From NCBI GenBank assembly GCA_963662795.1, contig OY759746.1, positions 3,680,001-3,744,000 on the forward strand: a stretch of DNA of 64,000 nucleotides. Reading direction: 5' to 3'. Positions 52,271 through 61,023 of the stretch are shown here, one piece after another. The notes below the pieces were generated by a model, which ran no database searches, was not told the origin of the DNA, and saw only the letters and a program-made list of their open reading frames with translations. The DNA comes from Spirochaetia bacterium. Lineage in GTDB: Bacteria > Spirochaetota > Spirochaetia > CADAEX01. Each line of letters starts with the position of its first letter. The first letter of the stretch is position 1. A program made the translations under genes and the position numbers.

Positions 52271-52900
52271 ATGAAAAAGGAATACAGGGATCTGATAGAG
52301 CTTGGTAAATATCTTGTTAAATACCGCTACGCCAGCGGATCTGCCGGCAATATTTCACTCAAAATGGATAACGGTTATGTGCTTGCATCCCCGACCAATT
52401 CACATCTGGGATCACTTTCTAAAAAGGATTTATCCCTTCTGGATGACAAAGGGAACCACATTTCCGGGCTAAAGCCTACCAAGGAAATTGAACTGCACCT
52501 TTCAATTTACAGAAGCAGAAAAGAGACCAATGCGGTGATCCATCTTCATTCAACATATCTTACAGCGTTTTCATGTCTGGAAGGACTTGACCGGTCAAGT
52601 GTGCTGAAGCCCATAACGCCCTATGTTTTAATGAAAACCGGAGATATCCCGCTTATTCCTTATTTCAAGCCGGGTTCAATAGAAATTGCGCGGAAGATAG
52701 AATCCCTTGCAGCCGGCCACTCATCATTTCTCCTTGCAAACCACGGAATAGTTGTCAGCGGCAGGACAACAACTGAGGCATGCTATAATTTCGAGGAAAT
52801 TGAAGAAACTGCGAAGCTGCACTTTCTGCTTAAGAATGAGAAGATAAACTATCTTACAGATGATGATGTATCAGCTCTGCGCAGGAGGGCTTTCAAATGA
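52271..52900 (+). CDS. otnC: Class II aldolase family, 3-oxo-tetronate 4-phosphate decarboxylase-like
   Basis: GSAGNIS, PTKE..LH, IHLHSTY, PITPY, LLANHG, EEIEETA; 4-nt overlap with otnK. Confidence 0.82.
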   Translation: MKKEYRDLIELGKYLVKYRYASGSAGNISLKMDNGYVLASPTNSHLGSLSKKDLSLLDDKGNHISGLKPTKEIELHLSIYRSRKETNAVIHLHSTYLTAFSCLEGLDRSSVLKPITPYVLMKTGDIPLIPYFKPGSIEIARKIESLAAGHSSFLLANHGIVVSGRTTTEACYNFEEIEETAKLHFLLKNEKINYLTDDDVSALRRRAFK

Positions 52901-54153
52901 GTGATCCGCTTTTCGGCTGTGTCGCAGATGATTTTACCGGAGCAAGTGATGCTGCTTCCTTTTTCCTTGCGGGAGGTCTTAAAACCCTTTTGCTTAACGG
53001 CATACCTTCCGGATCCGGAGACCGTCCTGACGGTATCCAGGCGATCGTTATTGCCCTGAAATCCCGGACACAGGAAAGCTCAATTGCTGTCAGAGATTCA
53101 CTTGAGGCTTTTGCGATGCTGAAAAAGATTGGATGCAGACAGCTTTATTTCAAGTACTGCTCAACCTTTGACTCAACACCGGAAGGTAATATCGGACCTG
53201 TCATAGACGCAGTTCTGGATAAATACAAACTGCCCTATACAATAATCTGCCCCGCCCTGCCGGTAAATAAACGTACTGTAAAAAACGGACATCTTTTTGT
53301 AAACGGAGTTCCGCTGCATAAAAGCCCGATGAAAGACCATCCGCTTACCCCCATGTGGGATTCCGACCTTAATAACCTTATCGCGGCCCAGGGTAAATAC
53401 AGGAGCTTTAATCTTGACTACAGACTTCTTGAAAAAAACAGGGTCGAAATATTTGAGAAGATATTCAATTTCAGATCTTCAATAGGCGGCAGACCTTTTT
53501 ATATTATTACAGATTATTTTAATGAAAACCACGCTGTAATTATCGCAGACCTTTTCAGAAACCATCCGTTTTTGACAGGAGGTTCAGGTCTCCCTTTCGC
53601 CCTTGCCAGGCAGAATGCGGCACAGGATAAAGCTGCTTTAAAAAACAATTTAAGCAGAGGGACTGAAGGAAGCACTCTCCTTCTTGCAGGAAGCTGCTCA
53701 ACAGCAACAAGAGGGCAGATTGCAGACTTTAAGAAAAATAAAGGTGTTTCAATTGAACTTGATCTTCCGCGTCTCTTAAAAGGGGAAATCGACAGCAGCT
53801 TTTATTCAGATTTCCTCAAGGTCAATAAAGGGCGCGACGTTCTTATACACACCCCCTCAGAAATCAGAAGCAGCGGTACCCCTGTTTCAGAATTACTTGA
53901 AAATACTATAGCCGGGATAGCATATAACGCTGTCGAAAATGGAATCAGAAAAATTGTTACAGCAGGGGGAGAAACATCCGGAGCTGTTGCCGGGAGACTT
54001 GGTTTTAATTCATATTTAATCGCAGGGAGTGTCGCGCCCGGGGTACCGGTGCTGATCCCTGTTGAAAAAGATGTTATGAGGATTATTTACAAATCAGGCA
54101 ATTTCGGCCAGGAGGATTTTTTCACAAGGGCAATTGAAGCTGTCGGAAAATAG
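52897..54153 (+). CDS. otnK: 3-oxo-tetronate kinase (four-carbon acid sugar kinase, DUF1537 family)
   Basis: ADDFTGASD, ALKSR, YFKYCSTFDST..GNIG, HPLTPM, GSCS, AGGETSG, KSGNFG. Confidence 0.9.
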   Translation: MSDPLFGCVADDFTGASDAASFFLAGGLKTLLLNGIPSGSGDRPDGIQAIVIALKSRTQESSIAVRDSLEAFAMLKKIGCRQLYFKYCSTFDSTPEGNIGPVIDAVLDKYKLPYTIICPALPVNKRTVKNGHLFVNGVPLHKSPMKDHPLTPMWDSDLNNLIAAQGKYRSFNLDYRLLEKNRVEIFEKIFNFRSSIGGRPFYIITDYFNENHAVIIADLFRNHPFLTGGSGLPFALARQNAAQDKAALKNNLSRGTEGSTLLLAGSCSTATRGQIADFKKNKGVSIELDLPRLLKGEIDSSFYSDFLKVNKGRDVLIHTPSEIRSSGTPVSELLENTIAGIAYNAVENGIRKIVTAGGETSGAVAGRLGFNSYLIAGSVAPGVPVLIPVEKDVMRIIYKSGNFGQEDFFTRAIEAVGK

Positions 54154-54160
54154 TTCAGGG

Positions 54161-55570
54161 TTATTCAAGCAAAAAGGATTCAACAAGGTTCAGTTCACCC
54201 TCTTTTATATCTGCCTTTCCGCGATTGTCCCTGTAAATAATCTGTCCCTTGCTGTAATAATCAATACGTATTGTATGTTCACCCGGGGGGAGGGTAATAT
54301 CAGCTACCCTTGCATAAGCAGGGAAATAGGGAGAAATGCGCAAATCAGCATTCTCTGTCGCATCAACGGCAATGTCGGCAGTAACCCCCAATAATAAGTC
54401 CAGGAAAGGGTTCCCGCCTGTAATTGATTCGCTGGCCTGTTTTTTACCTGATTCTTTCAGCATATTTTTAACAACAGTCCGGATAACTGTTTTACCAATA
54501 ACCAGAGGCTGTTTGATCAGAAAAATCTCCTGTGATATTTTTTCCATATTTTCCAGCAGGTCAAGGCTTTCACTGATTTTATCATCGATTACAATATCAA
54601 CCCTGTCCACTTCGCTGCCCATCATTTTCATTTTCGGATACTGGAATTTGAAATGAAATCCCCCTTTTAATCCAGGCATATAAATATTATTGAAACCTAC
54701 AACGCTCTTTACATATTCCTCATCCTGGCTGGTTGCGACTATCCATACTACATCCGGGGTTGTCTGAAGATAAAAAGTTTCAGCCAGTTTTCTTGGAGAA
54801 TTACCTGAAAAAGCTATAACTGAGAGATGGGCCTTTTCCCTGTCCATACTCAGAAGAGGGATTTCAGGCTTTTTAAACGGATAAAGCTGACTCTGGAGTT
54901 TAAAAGCTTTTTCTATCTCTTCACTTTCGATCCTCGCACTGTCAAACTTCCCTTCCATACGGTATAGAAGAAGACCCAGATAACGCGCCAGGGCATCATT
55001 GTGAAACCTGTTTTTACGGGGAACTATCTCACCTTCAGGATTTTCTGAAGTATTGTGGATTTCAATCAATTCACGGTACTTGTCTTCAAGGATGTTGAGT
55101 TTTATATGAACTCTCCTGATTTCTACAAGTGCGCTGTCCATTTCGTTAAGAGCGATATAGTTTAGGGCTTTAAAAATGTTCAGATAAATATCTTCATAAT
55201 CTTCACCACTGTAATCAAGGGCATTATCATTTAATACACCTGAGACAAGAGCTTTAGAAACACTTTTAGTATAAAGTTCCTCAATCGCGTCTTCTGCTGC
55301 TGACAGGGCAATATTGCTCTTTTCATATTCGCCGCTGAAATGGTAAAGCATACCTGTATCCAGAAAATACAGCACACGGTCTTTTTCTTTATAGCTTATC
55401 TCTTTTTGTGATTCTATGATTTTTCCGGCCGCTGCAAAATTCCTTCGCTTAAAGAATTCCGCAGCTTCCTGATACTGACTCTGGCTCGTTCTTGTGCTGG
55501 CGCATGATGCAGAGAAAATAATAATAACTAAAATTAAAAAATAATATTTTTTCTGCACCTGCATTTCCAT
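54161..55570 (-). CDS. COG3014-like lipoprotein
   Basis: Lipobox ASC; TPR-like N-terminus, YSGEDYE, ALNY, ALVEIRR, ENADLR; partner of the LpoB-like gene. Confidence 0.75.
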   Translation of the reverse strand: MEMQVQKKYYFLILVIIIFSASCASTRTSQSQYQEAAEFFKRRNFAAAGKIIESQKEISYKEKDRVLYFLDTGMLYHFSGEYEKSNIALSAAEDAIEELYTKSVSKALVSGVLNDNALDYSGEDYEDIYLNIFKALNYIALNEMDSALVEIRRVHIKLNILEDKYRELIEIHNTSENPEGEIVPRKNRFHNDALARYLGLLLYRMEGKFDSARIESEEIEKAFKLQSQLYPFKKPEIPLLSMDREKAHLSVIAFSGNSPRKLAETFYLQTTPDVVWIVATSQDEEYVKSVVGFNNIYMPGLKGGFHFKFQYPKMKMMGSEVDRVDIVIDDKISESLDLLENMEKISQEIFLIKQPLVIGKTVIRTVVKNMLKESGKKQASESITGGNPFLDLLLGVTADIAVDATENADLRISPYFPAYARVADITLPPGEHTIRIDYYSKGQIIYRDNRGKADIKEGELNLVESFLLE

Positions 55571-55584
55571 AGTTCCAGAATTTA

Positions 55585-56202
55585 TTACCAACCGGCTTTT
55601 GATTTCTTGATAAACTTTTTAACCTCTTTGGAACCAATCCAGACTTTTTCTGTGCTCTCAAGATTTACAAGTTCCAGATCTACCTGATAAAGAACTACTT
55701 TTTTCCCTTCAATCGCGTCTGTTACGGAGTTTATCTGTCCCTGCATCATGAAATCCGCACCTGTCTCTGCCGCAAGAGCCTTGGCTGTTTCAGGAGTTGC
55801 AAATATCTGCTGTTCTTTTTTCTCTGCCCTGACATCTGCCCTCTCGTCTTTGGCCGCAACAAACCTTACCCTGCCGCTGTTGATAAGTTCACGCTCAATA
55901 TCCTTTGTAAAAACTTCAGTCGCAATATGCTCTGAACTTTTATTGCGTACAGCCCCTACTATTACAACAGGATTCTGTCCGTTTTTACCGACAAAATTCA
56001 TAATCCATGGCCGTGAAAGTGAATCCTTTACCATCTCTTCCGCTACAAGCCTTGAATCTGTATCATTCCATCTTCCGCTTAAATCAATAACTTCATCAGA
56101 TTCAGTTCTTTCAACTTTGACAGAAGCACATGAAGCAAGCAGTAAAACTGCTAAAATTCCGGTAAAAAATACTTTTCCTGATATAGCTGATTTTATTCTC
56201 AT
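55585..56202 (-). CDS. LpoB-family (penicillin-binding protein activator-like) lipoprotein
   Basis: Lipobox LASC; DLSGRWNDTD, NKSSEHI, GADFMMQG, YQVDLEL, KVW. Confidence 0.82.
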   Translation of the reverse strand: MRIKSAISGKVFFTGILAVLLLASCASVKVERTESDEVIDLSGRWNDTDSRLVAEEMVKDSLSRPWIMNFVGKNGQNPVVIVGAVRNKSSEHIATEVFTKDIERELINSGRVRFVAAKDERADVRAEKKEQQIFATPETAKALAAETGADFMMQGQINSVTDAIEGKKVVLYQVDLELVNLESTEKVWIGSKEVKKFIKKSKAGW

Positions 56203-56286: not shown

Positions 56287-57537
56287 TTAGTCAAGAAGAC
56301 AGCATATTACCTTGTCTATCCTCTTGATGCGGTTACTTAAATCCTTTCTCTCCCCCTCACTTAATCCCTGAGGGGAGGAGTTTTTAATCTTATCAAGAAG
56401 TATTTCAACGCTGTCAACCGCTTCTTTCAGGGAAAGATCATCATCCATCCCTCTTTTGAATACAGGTTCCAAATCTGCAATCAGTAATTCTGTTTTTTTA
56501 TTTCCCGGCAGAGTTTTTAGAACGTTATCAGGGACAGCAAGAAGTTCTGCAATTTTCCCCTTAAGGCTTTTCAGACGGAGGGAAGCATTGTTCATATTTC
56601 CAATGCTGAAATCAAGTTTTTTCCTGTAATGCTTTGTTGCGGTAAGGAAAAATCTGAGTTCGATTGGGAAGTACCCGGATTCATAAACACCTTCAGGATA
56701 GAGGATATTGCCTCTGCTTTTTGACATGGACCTGCCGTCTATCAGGAGATGCTCACCATGGAGATAATAGTTTGCATACTCCTTTCCTGTATAGGATTCC
56801 ATCACAGCAATGTTGTAATCATGGTGCCGGTAAATATTATCAATACCGCCGCAATTAATATCAACCTGCTCCCCCAGATGTTTTACAATCATGGCAGGGT
56901 CCTGAACGTTCCAGGAAGGCCTTCCCCTTCCTATAGAAGTATCCCAGAAATGAACATGTTCACCCCTGTCCGCATGCCAAAGGATGAAATCGCCCTTATT
57001 CCACCGGTTGCCGTTATATGTGTCCCTGCGGAAACGGACCTTCTTTTCAGGCCACTTGTTCATATCAAGACCGAAAAGTTTCCCAAATCCGGAAAAAGTA
57101 AGCGGATCAAAGAACACATCCTTACCGTAGTAATAGGCATGTCCCTTTTGTATAAGTGTTTGAATTATCTCAACCGCTTCAGAAACACTGCCTGAAGAAG
57201 TGGGTATTACATCGGGAAGCTTTATCCTTAAATCATTGGATTCACTGTAAAAATGATCTGCCGCAGCTGAAGTTATTTCTTCAATTTTCAGCTCCCGGGT
57301 AAGAGATTCCTCGATTGTCTTATCCTCAAGATCTGTAAAATTTATTATCCTCTTTACATCATAACCGAGGTATTCAAGATAACGGATCAGAATATCTTCA
57401 TAGAGAAATGTCCTGTAATTGCCTATATGAGGTCTTCTGTATATTGAAGGGCCGCAGGTAAAAACCTTTACCTTTCCCGATTCCCGGGATTTGAATAATT
57501 CACTCTGCCCGCTCATGCTGTTTTTAAGTTTTAACAA
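56287..57537 (-). CDS. Cysteinyl-tRNA synthetase-like paralog (altered Zn site, no C-terminal anticodon-binding domain)
   Basis: TCGPSIY, HIGN, NFTDLEDK, DFILW, GRPSW, SMSKS and DALR-like MDDDL present; WHIEC replaced by WNVQD and HHENE by HHDYN; likely TTG start at 57537. Confidence 0.85.
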   Translation of the reverse strand: MLKLKNSMSGQSELFKSRESGKVKVFTCGPSIYRRPHIGNYRTFLYEDILIRYLEYLGYDVKRIINFTDLEDKTIEESLTRELKIEEITSAAADHFYSESNDLRIKLPDVIPTSSGSVSEAVEIIQTLIQKGHAYYYGKDVFFDPLTFSGFGKLFGLDMNKWPEKKVRFRRDTYNGNRWNKGDFILWHADRGEHVHFWDTSIGRGRPSWNVQDPAMIVKHLGEQVDINCGGIDNIYRHHDYNIAVMESYTGKEYANYYLHGEHLLIDGRSMSKSRGNILYPEGVYESGYFPIELRFFLTATKHYRKKLDFSIGNMNNASLRLKSLKGKIAELLAVPDNVLKTLPGNKKTELLIADLEPVFKRGMDDDLSLKEAVDSVEILLDKIKNSSPQGLSEGERKDLSNRIKRIDKVICCLLD

Positions 57538-57628: not shown

Positions 57629-57657
57629 TTGACAATTGCACCTAACATGATTACTTT
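57629..57657 (+). promoter_or_regulatory. Sigma70 promoter of the methyltransferase gene (probably leaderless)
   Basis: TTGACA-N17-TACTTT-N7-ATG(57665); no SD. Confidence 0.6.
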
Positions 57658-57664
57658 ACATATC

Positions 57665-58267
57665 ATGCGGAATGAAGAAAAAATAAAAAACCACTACTAT
57701 CCCCGGCTTGAAAATTTCAGGGAAACACATAAAATTCTGGATTGGGAAAGCAGGGAGGCCCAGTTTGCAAGATTCGAGGTGCTTACGAGGCATGTATCTC
57801 TTGACGGAAAATCTGTACTTGATGCAGGGTGCGGCTGCGGCGATCTTTTTTCAATGCTTAAAGAAAGAGGGATTATAGTATCCTACACAGGGGTTGATAT
57901 CCTTCCGGCAATGATTGAAAAAGCACAGTCTCTTCATGACGACGGGCAATTCCTCTGCGGGGATCTCTTTGGTGAAGAACCTGTATGCACGGAAAAATTT
58001 GACGTGGTTTTTACATCGGGAATATTCAATCTCAATCTCGGTAATAATGCCGCATTCTTTGACGCGGCTCTTCCTGTTCTGCACAGGCTTGCAAGGGAAA
58101 CGCTTGTCATAAACCTGCTTGATGAGGCAAGTCCGGACAGGGATAATAATTACTTTTATTTTAATCCTGAAGATACAAAAGCAAAAATGGAATCTATCGG
58201 CAGACAGGTTACAATAGTCAAAGATTACCTTTTAAACGATTTTACCCTTATAGGTATCCTTCAGTAG
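57665..58267 (+). CDS. Class I SAM-dependent methyltransferase
   Basis: W.S.E.Q..RF, VLDAGCGCG, YTGVDI, SGIFN. Confidence 0.88.
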   Translation: MRNEEKIKNHYYPRLENFRETHKILDWESREAQFARFEVLTRHVSLDGKSVLDAGCGCGDLFSMLKERGIIVSYTGVDILPAMIEKAQSLHDDGQFLCGDLFGEEPVCTEKFDVVFTSGIFNLNLGNNAAFFDAALPVLHRLARETLVINLLDEASPDRDNNYFYFNPEDTKAKMESIGRQVTIVKDYLLNDFTLIGILQ

Positions 58268-58305: not shown

Positions 58306-58950
58306 TCAAAGAGACCTGCATATCATTACTGCAAAATGCATACTGAAATTTATTTTGTCCGCCCCTTTTATCAGCAGTCTCTGTTCTTTCAGCAATTCCA
58401 TATTGTTATTTTTAAGCAGATTATTAATATAAAGCGGAGAATGCCTGAATATCGGTACGCCCCAGTCTGTATCTTCCCTCAAGAAATCTGCAGGCAGCCC
58501 GTGGGGAGCAAAGGAAAAAGCAATGATTCCTCCGCTTCTGACTACCCTTTTGATCTCTGAAAAGATTTGAGTTAAATCATCAACAAAATGAAGTACACCG
58601 CAGCAGACAGCATGATCAAAAAATCCTTTCCGGTACGGTATTTTTTCCCTTGCAATATCGAACAGGCTGAGTTCTTCAGTAAAAGATTTCGCTTTACAGG
58701 CATCAAGCATATCCTGTGAGTAATCCAGACCATAGACTTTAAGCCCTGTTTCCGCAAAATGGATGGAAGCCAAACCGGTTCCGATACCGATATCCAGAAG
58801 CTTTTCGCCGGGATTTATATATTCATAACTCATTCCAAATATAACTTCATGACCATAGCTGTTATATGCTCTGACTTCTTTGTCATAATTATCTGCGAAT
58901 TCCCTGTACTGCAGCTCTTTTTGTTTCTGACTCACTATAACTTCTTCCAT
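58306..58950 (-). CDS. Class I SAM-dependent methyltransferase
   Basis: LLDIGIGTG, GLDYS..ML, FDHAV..GVLHF. Confidence 0.88.
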   Translation of the reverse strand: MEEVIVSQKQKELQYREFADNYDKEVRAYNSYGHEVIFGMSYEYINPGEKLLDIGIGTGLASIHFAETGLKVYGLDYSQDMLDACKAKSFTEELSLFDIAREKIPYRKGFFDHAVCCGVLHFVDDLTQIFSEIKRVVRSGGIIAFSFAPHGLPADFLREDTDWGVPIFRHSPLYINNLLKNNNMELLKEQRLLIKGADKINFSMHFAVMICRSL

Positions 58951-59132: not shown

Positions 59133-59891
59133 ATGAGCACCGATTACCAGATACCGATAATGATTAAAACAATGAAAGTAATTGATATTATTTCAGAAAA
59201 CAAGGATGGACTGACTTTCTCGGAAATTCTCCGTCATCTGAAATATCCAAAGACAACACTGTTCAGAATACTACAGACACTGGAATCACAGAACTGGATT
59301 TCAAAAAAATCTGATCATTATACTCTTGGATACATGGTCATCCATTATGGCCTTGCAGGTTTATCAGGAAGAGACATCAGGAGAATATCTCTTCCTTACC
59401 TTGAAGAACTGCGTGAACTTACGACAGAGACTACTCATCTTGCAGTTCTTTCAGGAAGAAAGAGCATGATAATTGAGATTATAGACAGTCAAAAACATAT
59501 AAAACCCTCGTCCCCGATGGGATCTCTCATAGATCTTTACTGTTCTGCACATGGAAAAGTCTTTTTAGCATATAAAATAAAGGAAGATCTGGAATCCTTC
59601 TATAAAAATACAGAACTGGTCAAAAGGACATCACATACTATTACGGATATACCGTCACTTATGGAAGAAACAAGAAAAATCCTGAAAAACGGCTATGCTG
59701 TGGATGATATGGAATATTATGATGATGTTCGGTGCCTGGCCGCACCGGTCTGGGGGAAAGACAACGAAGTTGTGGGAGCAGTGGGAATAACTGCTACCAC
59801 CAGGGACTTTACCAGGGATCTCATTCCGGTCATGGCAAAGCATGTAATATCTGCATCCCGTAATATTTCAAGGGAAATGGGCAGTATCTGA
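59133..59891 (+). CDS. IclR-family transcriptional regulator (KdgR-like by context)
   Basis: HTH PKTTLFRILQTL; ETTHLA, YCSAHGKVFLA, GYAVDDME, CLAAPV. Confidence 0.93.
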   Translation: MSTDYQIPIMIKTMKVIDIISENKDGLTFSEILRHLKYPKTTLFRILQTLESQNWISKKSDHYTLGYMVIHYGLAGLSGRDIRRISLPYLEELRELTTETTHLAVLSGRKSMIIEIIDSQKHIKPSSPMGSLIDLYCSAHGKVFLAYKIKEDLESFYKNTELVKRTSHTITDIPSLMEETRKILKNGYAVDDMEYYDDVRCLAAPVWGKDNEVVGAVGITATTRDFTRDLIPVMAKHVISASRNISREMGSI

Positions 59892-59912
59892 CTTACTCGG
59901 ATTAATTTTTAA

Positions 59913-59973
59913 TTGACAGCCCGGAGAAACTGAATTATCCTGAATTAATATATTATGAAACCTATTTTCAAAT
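59913..59973 (+). promoter_or_regulatory. Sigma70 promoter and KdgR-like operator of the TRAP-kdu operon
   Basis: TTGACA-N17-TATCCT at 59913-59941; operator TATGAAACCTATTTTCAAAT at 59954-59973 with core TGAAAC-N3-TTTTCA. Confidence 0.65.
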
Positions 59974-59991
59974 AGGAAACCAGGAGGTTTT

Positions 59992-61023
59992 ATGAAAAAA
60001 TTATTTTCACTATCCCTGATACTTGTGTTTTCTTCAGTATTACTCTTTGCGGGCGGAAGCAAGGAACCTGCAGCTGAGAAAATGGAAAAAAAAGAAGAAT
60101 CAAAAATCTATGTCTTCAAATATTCCAATTCACAGTCTGATAAAGCCCCGCGCAGCAAATCCATGCTTTTCTTCAAGGATACACTGGAAAAAGCAAGCAA
60201 TGGCCGGATACAGGTTGAATTGTATTTTAACGGTGTACTTGGAACCGAGGCAGAGGTTTTTGAAATGGTACAGCTGGGGACAGTACAGGGATGCCGCGGC
60301 GGGCTGTTTGAAAGGGCAAATAAAAAATTCCTGCTATATACTCTGCCTTTCATGTTTGAAAACGCGGAACAGGTTGTTAAGGTCATGAGAAGCGATTTTG
60401 GACAGAAGATCAATAAAGGCGCACTCGCCAATGGAGTTTATATTCCGGCAACAGGTGTCGCAGGCGGGATGAGAAATATAACAAACAGCGCGCGTCCGAT
60501 AAAAACCCCAGCTGACCTTGCAGGACTCAAGATGAGAACTCCCCCAATTGAATCCACTCTCCTGACTTTTCAGGCACTGGGAGCAAATCCACAACAGGTA
60601 GCATATACAGAAACCTATATGGCTCTTAAAAGCGGTGTAGTAGACGGACAGGAAAATCCATATTCGAATGCAGTTGATATGAAGTTTTATGAAGCACAGA
60701 AATATCTGTCTGTAGTTAACTGGCAGGTACATCCGGATCCTTTTTATGTCAATCCTGACTGGTACAACAGCCTTCCCGCAGACCTGAAAGCTGTTTTCAA
60801 TTCAGTTGCCGAAGCTACCATGCAGTACAGCGATACAATCTGGCTTAATTCTGAAGAAGGTTATTTTAACATTCTAAAGGAAAAACTGGCAGTTAATACT
60901 ATAACTCCCGAGGCAAGGGCACAGTTTGTAAACAAAGTACAAAGTGTATGGAAATATTATACTGATAAAAATTATTTCACACAGGCAGAAATTGACGAAG
61001 CTCTTGCTATTGCTTCTAAATAA
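59992..61023 (+). CDS. dctP: TRAP transporter substrate-binding protein DctP
   Basis: Spirochete-style FAGG leader; SNGRIQV, GMRNI, DLAGLKMR (carboxylate-binding Arg), GVVDGQENP, FYE. Confidence 0.95.
   Translation: MKKLFSLSLILVFSSVLLFAGGSKEPAAEKMEKKEESKIYVFKYSNSQSDKAPRSKSMLFFKDTLEKASNGRIQVELYFNGVLGTEAEVFEMVQLGTVQGCRGGLFERANKKFLLYTLPFMFENAEQVVKVMRSDFGQKINKGALANGVYIPATGVAGGMRNITNSARPIKTPADLAGLKMRTPPIESTLLTFQALGANPQQVAYTETYMALKSGVVDGQENPYSNAVDMKFYEAQKYLSVVNWQVHPDPFYVNPDWYNSLPADLKAVFNSVAEATMQYSDTIWLNSEEGYFNILKEKLAVNTITPEARAQFVNKVQSVWKYYTDKNYFTQAEIDEALAIASK

Follow-up and report, generated by a model that had tools for sequence, protein, structure and literature searches.

A gene in a 64,000-nucleotide window of a Spirochaetia bacterium genome (GenBank assembly GCA_963662795.1, contig OY759746.1, positions 3,680,001 to 3,744,000) encodes a paralog of cysteinyl-tRNA synthetase (CysRS), which we refer to below as the ligase. 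The ligase is a real, intact, and selected member of an uncharacterized family of CysRS offshoots, and its probable role is to attach some amino acid to an acceptor that is not ordinary cysteine tRNA. Our working interpretation, held tentatively and at somewhat less than an even chance, is that of a predicted anticodon-independent, adenylate-forming amino-acid ligase of retuned specificity, similar to MshC and distinct from the CysRS of the cell. Literature searches found no published description of the family. New here are the residue mapping onto E. coli CysRS, the column statistics for the family versus canonical CysRS, the contrast in constraint between the CP1 loop and the helical bundle together with a redistribution of charge, the DPANN sister sequences, and a set of negative tests for partner genes and pathways.

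The ligase accompanies a canonical cysS

A preliminary description of the gene, made from the sequence alone, had read it as a CysRS paralog, which leaves a canonical cysS to be expected elsewhere in the genome. One was found. In the host genome (3.93 Mb on one contig, 98% complete), a cysS at C1:3205565-3206968 scores 494 bits, versus 275.4 bits for the paralog in the genome-wide search with TIGR00435 (cysS), so that the ligase is a paralog and not the housekeeping enzyme. Scored by itself, the ligase reaches 275.9 bits, below the curated equivalog cut-off of 340; PF01406, the CysRS catalytic domain, matches residues 16-318 at 237.4 bits, and NCBIfam holds no model specific to the ligase family. 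Paralog-level matches (50-100% identity) occurred in 3 of 151 sampled Spirochaetota genomes, namely the host (G000), G083, and G108, each of which also had a canonical-level match (30-37% identity). Five further carriers were reached via related loci (Desulfoferrobacter, two Spirochaetia metagenome-assembled genomes [MAGs], a Leptospira-labeled MAG, and an Acidobacteriota MAG), and all five had a cysS above the cut-off besides a paralog scoring 268-317 bits. The paralog was never the sole CysRS in the 8 genomes checked.

Other unusual CysRS-like frames were seen in the course of this survey. The Desulfoferrobacter genome (G151) has a third one at G151:C53:233096-234484, which covers the full model at 260.9 bits within an 801-aa open frame. 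In four Spirochaetota genomes (G030, G094, G117, and G102), the sole CysRS match is embedded in an open frame of 694-886 aa, as would be expected of a fused form.

Gene, fold, and catalytic core

The open reading frame is uninterrupted and would give 435 aa if an upstream GTG were taken as the start; the database gene call begins at ATG 57516 and gives 409 aa. The true start is probably TTG 57537, which we favor because the LKLxN N-terminal strand is kept in the consensus of the homologs, because the homolog at locus L083 starts with MLKLYNT at a TTG, and because an AAGG lies 6 nt upstream. Residue numbers refer to the 409-aa form, except where E. coli numbering is stated; those of the 416-aa form are higher by 7. 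E. coli equivalences come from a HMMER alignment to E. coli CysRS (1li5). The frame had been described as undecayed, and it is indeed open throughout, with all the quoted motifs found at their coordinates (Table 1).

An AlphaFold2 model built on a 136-row alignment is confident (pLDDT 93.4, pTM 0.93), and its top Foldseek match is CysRS 8qhp (TM score 0.87, root mean square deviation 2.5, 406 columns); a search of the ESM Atlas with the ligase returned CysRS-like clusters only. The TIGR00435 match stops at model position 393 of 466, where the protein also ends, in agreement with the earlier remark that it finishes just after the DALR-like helices. The companion claim, that there is no anticodon domain, was partly right. 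The C-terminal extension (about 70 model positions) is missing. The claim was nevertheless overstated because the helical bundle is present and confidently modeled (helices 305-404, the last of them 387-404) and because the class Ia helical bundle is, according to AARS Online, the anticodon-binding domain of CysRS, the small C-terminal extension being listed separately. A search for longer, fused forms of the ligase returned only 1 protein, at 29% identity.

The adenylation motifs reported as retained (HIGN, SMSKS, TD, and CGGID) are all there, with H30, K266, G223, G224, and D226 invariant; Borrelia CysRS (3sp1) likewise has HIGN. The equivalent of E. coli Thr68, which we take to be the residue that anchors the alpha-amino group, is kept together with its neighboring Asp, suggesting that the substrate would be an alpha-amino acid. 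The family is under purifying selection, with dN/dS values of 0.107 against an 82%-identical homolog (dS 0.92) and 0.086 against a 65%-identical homolog, for which dS is saturated. Column statistics show one weakened catalytic position: the first KMSKS Lys is basic in 22% of the family versus 100% of the canonical sequences. This would suit a pseudo-enzyme that has lost catalysis and serves in regulation or binding. We consider such a role very improbable, since HIGN, the second KMSKS Lys (1.0 in the family), GG.D, and Thr-Asp are invariant, the pocket residues are the best-conserved part of the protein, and dN/dS is low.

A rebuilt metal and amino-acid pocket

We take the zinc ligands of E. 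coli CysRS to be Cys28, Cys209, His234, and Glu238, as Newberry et al. in 2002 and Zhang et al. in 2003 are said to have found. The assignment is supported independently because these four columns have a frequency of 1.0 in the 94 canonical sequences. E. coli residues Cys28, His206, Glu208, Cys209, His224, Pro233, His234, Glu236, Asn237, and Glu238 correspond in the ligase to Cys21, Asn203, Gln205, Asp206, Asn221, Arg230, His231, Asp233, Tyr234, and Asn235, respectively. Alignment to 1li5 therefore bears out the changes of Cys209 to Asp, Glu238 to Asn, and His206 to Asn that had been read from the sequence, and two of the four zinc ligands are replaced.

These replacements are a property of the family and not of the one protein. 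When 123 family members and 94 canonical sequences were aligned together, the columns of His206, Glu208, and Cys209 had Asn, Gln, and Asp at 1.0 in the family, whereas canonical sequences have His, Glu, and Cys at 1.0; at the Glu238 column, the family has Asn at 0.98 and canonical sequences have Glu at 1.0. Eight columns in all carry one residue in 99-100% of canonical sequences and another in at least 95% of the family: Tyr to Phe19, Thr to Ser24, Tyr to Phe144, His to Asn203, Glu to Gln205, Cys to Asp206, His to Asn221, and Glu to Asn235. Further changes in the family are Ser to Pro207, Pro to Arg230, Glu to Asp233, Asn to Tyr234, and Lys to His181. Arg230 stands out, with a frequency of 1.0 in the family at a column that is basic in none (0.0) of the canonical sequences. 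The signatures of the FPHHENE and WH.EC type, which the preliminary description had listed as changed, are replaced throughout, the RHHDY block being present in 121 of 121 proteins and WN[IV]QD being fixed in the family. The change from DIHGGG to DINCGG, also listed there, proved not to be diagnostic: canonical CysRS often has the Cys as well, and divergent members of the family have H, A, N, Y, C, M, F, or S where the Asn stands. The altered motifs, fixed across a family with dN/dS at 0.107, are not a product of drift.

From these residues, we infer a three-ligand Cys/Asp/His metal site in which two glutamates are neutralized, two second-shell histidines have become amides, and an arginine and a tyrosine are added. 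Such a site would be harder and less negative than the zinc-thiolate site of CysRS and would suit a side chain that is anionic or that donates through O or N rather than a plain thiolate. A "non-cysteine" substrate is plausible on this basis, and the conservation of Cys21, Asp206, and His231 argues against a metal-free protein.

The same site may also be viewed as that of a back-up CysRS that makes Cys-tRNA-Cys and resists stress, zinc limitation, or inhibitors by having fewer oxidizable thiolates at the metal. The equivalents of Cys28 and His234 are invariant, Asp is able to ligate zinc, duplicate aminoacyl-tRNA synthetase (aaRS) genes are known to serve in stress or resistance, and some loci adjoin OsmC-, thioredoxin-like, or glyoxalase-family genes. 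Even so, a back-up role is improbable. The eight residues changed are invariant (99-100%) in 94 canonical sequences and include Trp-adjacent and second-shell positions; the acceptor-stem reader is rebuilt and the C-terminal anticodon reader is absent; the paralog scores below the cysS cut-off and never stood alone in the genomes checked; and the stress-type neighbors do not recur, no Pfam family reaching more than 2 of 82 neighbor clusters.

Two otherwise canonical-length CysRS representatives, P0160 (462 aa) and P0166 (858 aa), have WH[IV]ED instead of WHIEC. P0160 also has HHECE for HHENE, as if the zinc-ligand Cys had shifted from the Cys209 to the Asn237 position, and P0166, which has three matched stretches, apparently carries a pair of CysRS-like modules in a single chain.

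The acceptor side

The second rebuilt region is the CP1 loop. Residues QAGA164-167 of E. coli CysRS align with Lys-Val-Arg-Phe159-162 of the ligase, preceded by a three-residue insert, and the family consensus for the loop, WPKKKVRFKKDTYNGRRWN.GDFILWH, includes WPKKKVRF. In D. tiedjei CysRS, according to Mukai et al. (PMC5389517), the corresponding MSGA164-167 is the CP1 element that recognizes the first base pair (1:72) of tRNA-Cys. The ratio of family to canonical entropy is 0.30 for the CP1 loop, 0.57-0.60 for four other regions (the N and C halves of the Rossmann fold, the whole CP domain, and the KMSKS/stem-contact [SC] fold), and 0.95 for the C-terminal helical bundle. These ratios indicate that the loop is unusually strongly constrained and the bundle unusually weakly.

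Charge is redistributed in a similar way. Two columns of the bundle that are Lys or Arg in canonical sequences, 383 (85%) and 394 (99%), drop to 25% and 34%, respectively, in the family. Conversely, there are nine columns (27, 28, 56, 159, 163, 164, 230, 300, and 319) at which 80% or more of the family, but no more than 26% of canonical sequences, have a basic residue, and they lie mostly in the catalytic half. The median isoelectric point (pI) is 8.62 in the family versus 6.09 in canonical CysRS. Taken together, the pattern of constraint, the shift of charge, and the pI speak against a reading of the anticodon arm and for a compact, probably anionic acceptor near the active site. They would fit a small molecule or an RNA 3' end alike and do not decide between them.

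An enzyme that transfers an aminoacyl group to RNA, be it at the 3' end or at a modified nucleoside, must accordingly be weighed; it would choose its acceptor via the rebuilt CP1 loop in place of the anticodon and might use a changed amino acid. PMC5389517 and PMC9437257 supply a precedent in the short CysRS termed CysRS* with its selC* tRNA, and GluQRS supplies another. The Lys/Arg-rich loop, the basic character of the family, and the retention of the HYR motif of the SC fold and of the helical bundle would all suit such an enzyme, as would the stand-alone gene (most aaRS genes stand alone) and tree sisters that are short CysRS forms from DPANN. On the other side, the small QAGA residues that permit approach of the acceptor stem have become bulky KVRF, and the bundle is relaxed, with two canonical basic columns lost. 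Together with the tRNA survey below, these points make an RNA-directed role rather unlikely in our judgment.

Family, distribution, and origin

A word-index protein search returned 2695 proteins at E <= 1e-10. The best 120 of these are about 380-456 aa long, with few fragments, and 52-100% identical to the ligase; when the 416-aa query is included, D[IVL]xCGGIDN..RHHDY is present in 121 of 121 and xMS[KR]S in 117 of 121, and the Glu238 position is N in 120 and T in 1. An exhaustive search of representatives showed a step in score: family members, which have WN.QD and RHHDY, reach at least 295 bits, whereas canonical CysRS sequences, which have WH.EC and PHHENE, stay at about 268 bits or lower. 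Divergent members retain WN[IV]QD and RHHDY as an invariant core, with N, T, or V at the Glu238 position. JGI records label members "cysteinyl-tRNA synthetase", and NCBI records call them "class I tRNA ligase family protein".

A pattern scan with one genome per species yielded 475 encoding loci, and the best 80 of these are mostly from Spirochaetota, including Leptospirales, followed by Desulfobacterota and one Acidobacteriota. Cultured carriers include Salinispira pacifica and Desulfoferrobacter suflitae DRH4 (locus L068). The family is rare and patchy among sampled genomes; in the phylum of Desulfoferrobacter, it is carried by 2 of 201 sampled genomes, the center genome included. This patchiness, with about 50% identity across phyla, points to horizontal spread.

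In a FastTree phylogeny of 136 rows (representatives of 370-560 aa, fragments and long fusions dropped, root unknown), the family forms one group of 15 rows with an SH-like support of 98. Its nearest rows are the short forms P0198 and P0146, followed by P0159 and P0174, with supports of 90-94 in this unrooted tree. P0146 and P0159 are named by NCBI as cysteine--tRNA ligases of Candidatus Ainarchaeum and Micrarchaeia (DPANN), and both retain the canonical pocket Cys and Glu. Since these short archaeal sisters have a canonical pocket, loss of the C-terminal extension probably preceded the change of the pocket; by the same token, a short architecture alone is no proof of tRNA independence. Descent from a short archaeal-type (HIGN) CysRS that became accessory and spread horizontally would best explain the ligase.

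Genomic context and pathway links

In the window, the gene for an LpoB-family lipoprotein follows the ligase gene after 84 nt, and a gene for a 476-aa lipoprotein comes next; a divergent S-adenosylmethionine (SAM) methyltransferase gene lies upstream. The 84-nt gap has no clear terminator and does have a promoter-like site. The lipoprotein pair stays together but swaps sides of the ligase gene between the window and locus L004 on the one hand and L005 on the other.

Open reading frames were clustered around the ligase gene at 80 related loci and in the window (81 loci), and synteny was conserved only at the level of the lineage. A check of homolog neighborhoods, proposed in the preliminary description, thus gave no recurring partner family: there were 82 distinct clusters of immediate neighbors and 115 Pfam families, none of which, among the top 25 of the 115, occurred in more than 2 clusters. 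By Pfam, the neighbor representatives have unrelated functions (ABC transporter, acyl-CoA ligase, oxidoreductases, PRAI, PriA, and others). Because the gene is free-standing, any partner must be universal or encoded elsewhere. The divergent SAM methyltransferase (57629-58267) was considered as a partner and rejected. Besides the window, it adjoins the ligase gene at L004, L005, L006, L077, L079, and L083 (7 loci in all), and it has no wider co-occurrence, look-alikes being found in 51 of 151 Spirochaetota genomes and in neither of the carriers G083 and G108. PADLOC gave no anti-phage defense match for the ligase.

For an RNA acceptor, the tRNA survey was unfavorable. ARAGORN, which can miss unusual tRNAs, found 46 tRNAs in the host genome, with one tRNA-Cys(GCA) and neither an extra tRNA-Cys nor a tRNA-Sec, and the best selD match there was 23.8 bits against a cut-off of 125. 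No tRNA gene lies beside the ligase gene at its own locus; among the 80 related loci, the only tRNA neighbor was tRNA-Gly(CCC), at 2 loci, and no SelB-like neighbor recurred across the 81 loci. Searches of the host genome for the mycothiol genes gave no MshB match and a best MshD match of 26.8 bits (cut-off, 163), and those for tRNA-dependent cysteine synthesis gave best matches of 34.6 bits for SepCysS (cut-off, 365) and 51 bits for SepRS (cut-off, 381). The weak SepRS-model match (G000:C1:1215828-1216304, minus strand) is probably of PheRS type, and there is one in-frame TGA in its 517-aa open frame.

Table 1. Features of the ligase gene and its surroundings (positions in the 64,000-nucleotide window)
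Feature	Position	Strand	Remarks
CysRS paralog coding sequence	56287..57537	-	416 codons + stop; TTG start 57537; stop codon 56287-56289
Cys28 equivalent (CGP motif)	57454..57456	-	First metal ligand kept; invariant in family and canonical sequences
HIGN	57418..57429	-	Class I HIGH signature for ATP binding
Thr68-Asp69 equivalent (NFTDLEDK)	57331..57336	-	T61, D62 invariant throughout, family and canonical alike
Rebuilt CP1 acceptor loop LDMNKWPEKKVRFRRDTYNGNRWNKGDFILWH	56974..57069	-	3-residue insert; KVRF replaces E. coli QAGA164-167
WNVQD	56899..56913	-	E. coli W205-H206-I207-E208-C209; Cys ligand replaced by Asp
CGGIDNIYRHHDYN	56812..56853	-	GG.D ATP motif, family-specific invariant Arg, His234 equivalent, Asp, Tyr, Asn for Glu238
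SMSKS (KMSKS loop)	56716..56730	-	Second Lys retained
C-terminal helical bundle (class Ia anticodon-binding domain/DALR-2-like)	56290..56604	-	Retained, weakly constrained; protein ends here
Ordinary neighbors: four-carbon acid sugar kinase-type protein (PF07005 + PF17042), IclR regulator, TRAP DctP solute-binding protein	52897-54153, 59133-61023	+, +
Lipoprotein pair	54161-56202	-	LpoB family PF13036, E 1.5e-42; 7-nt overlap with 476-aa gene, which has no Pfam match
Two small SAM-dependent methyltransferases side by side	57629-58267, 58306-58950	+, -	Weak PADLOC mad2 matches, E 1e-12 and 1e-13

Comparison with known enzymes

With canonical CysRS (TIGR00435; 8qhp, 1li5/1u0b, 3sp1), the ligase shares the fold from the N terminus to the end of the bundle, HIGN, GG.D, the KMSKS catalytic Lys, Thr-Asp, HYR, and the equivalents of Cys28 and His234. 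It differs in falling below the model cut-off, in being only 29-38% identical, in accompanying a real cysS in the genomes checked, in having Asp and Asn at two zinc ligands with six other invariant columns changed, and in its rebuilt CP1 loop and lack of a C-terminal extension.

MshC (TIGR03447; 3c8z, 8hfm) is similar in size and also lacks a C-terminal extension (about 410 aa; ligase, 416 aa), and Foldseek aligns its chains with the model at TM scores of 0.78-0.79 over 409-436 columns, MetRS scoring lower still. MshC keeps Cys-Cys-His as zinc ligands, whereas the ligase has Cys-Asp-His. The ligase scores 152.9 bits against an MshC cut-off of 485.1, its host genome lacks MshB, and MshD above cut-off, and the family occurs in Spirochaetota, Desulfobacterota, and Acidobacteriota, not Actinomycetota, among the best 80 of 475 loci. 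MshC is described in PMC2922099 and PMC9437257 as the cysteine:GlcN-Ins ligase of mycothiol synthesis, a CysRS paralog that is tRNA independent and forms an adenylate. In architecture and in the three-ligand metal site, the ligase seems closest to MshC; in the rival view, it would be more like CysRS* or GluQRS.

CysRS* of Desulfobacterales, as Mukai et al. (2016/2017) describe it in PMC5389517, belongs to a selC*-selB*-cysS* operon and is tied to tRNA-Cys(UCA); from the same source and PMC9437257, it is short, has no anticodon-binding domain at its C terminus, and has CP1 changes. The ligase family likewise reaches Desulfobacterota. In contrast, its loci have no adjacent selC*-type tRNA and no recurrent SelB, the host genome lacks tRNA-Sec, a second tRNA-Cys, and selD, and CysRS* has the CP1 motif PTVS (for MSGA/QAGA) where the ligase has KVRF and a three-residue insert. 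By description (operon, tRNA, and CP1), the ligase family is set apart from CysRS*, although those of its members that come from Desulfobacterales may yet be identical with CysRS*.

GluQRS (YadB) comes from another aaRS family and retains the amino-acid pocket of its parent. Like the ligase, it is a class I aaRS paralog without the anticodon-binding part and is encoded by a stand-alone gene, and it serves as a model for an RNA-directed, anticodon-independent role. This truncated GluRS, which is named in Table 1 of PMC9437257, glutamylates queuosine in tRNA-Asp.

Proposed mechanism and its weighing

In the mechanism that we tentatively propose, the Rossmann core, HIGN, the KMSKS catalytic Lys, GG.D, and the Thr-Asp pair would serve ATP-dependent adenylate formation, and the rebuilt Cys/Asp/His pocket with its Arg and Tyr would select a side chain unlike a plain thiolate. 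The acceptor would not be chosen via the anticodon, given the relaxed bundle, the loss of two basic residues, and the absence of the C-terminal extension. Instead, the aminoacyl-adenylate would be passed, in the manner of MshC, to a compact and probably anionic acceptor held by the CP1 loop, for which a small molecule is the likeliest candidate, ahead of an RNA 3' end.

Several points weigh against this interpretation. With no conserved partner gene, a dedicated small-molecule pathway has no genomic support. The basic family, the HYR motif, the helical bundle, and the DPANN sisters annotated as CysRS fit an RNA acceptor as well; these short archaeal forms are the nearest relatives in the tree, and the published short CysRS* acts on a tRNA (PMC5389517). 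The ligase of the window itself has a pI of only 6.9, in the face of the basic family median. Finally, a Cys/Asp/His site can hold zinc and could still take a cysteine thiolate, and we infer, rather than observe, that Arg230 and Tyr234 are turned toward the pocket. Asp/Cys/His zinc sites that bind thiolates occur in other enzymes.

It is also possible, if doubtful, that the ligase is a new class I ligase that places a non-cysteine amino acid, with an anionic, hydroxyl, or amine side chain, onto an acceptor not known as aminoacylated. The invariant basic and aromatic CP1 loop would then deliver the amino acid to a candidate such as the head group of a lipid, a metabolite resembling a nucleotide, or the end of an RNA other than tRNA, and the family would be a third functional CysRS offshoot, after MshC and CysRS*, spread among anaerobes by horizontal transfer.

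Significance

Offshoots of aaRSs have repeatedly turned out to have unexpected chemistry, as in mycothiol synthesis (MshC), tRNA modification (GluQRS), and UGA recoding (CysRS*). Textbooks cite CysRS as the example of an enzyme that selects its amino acid by means of a zinc-thiolate bond, and the ligase family alters exactly the residues that make this bond, in a form that is fixed and selected. In practical terms, genes of the family, for which there is no dedicated NCBIfam model, carry the labels of a cysteinyl-tRNA synthetase or a class I tRNA ligase. The substrate of the ligase, once found, would show how a metal-based specificity pocket gets retuned, and the ligase could reveal a new metabolite or RNA modification in spirochetes and in relatives of sulfate reducers.

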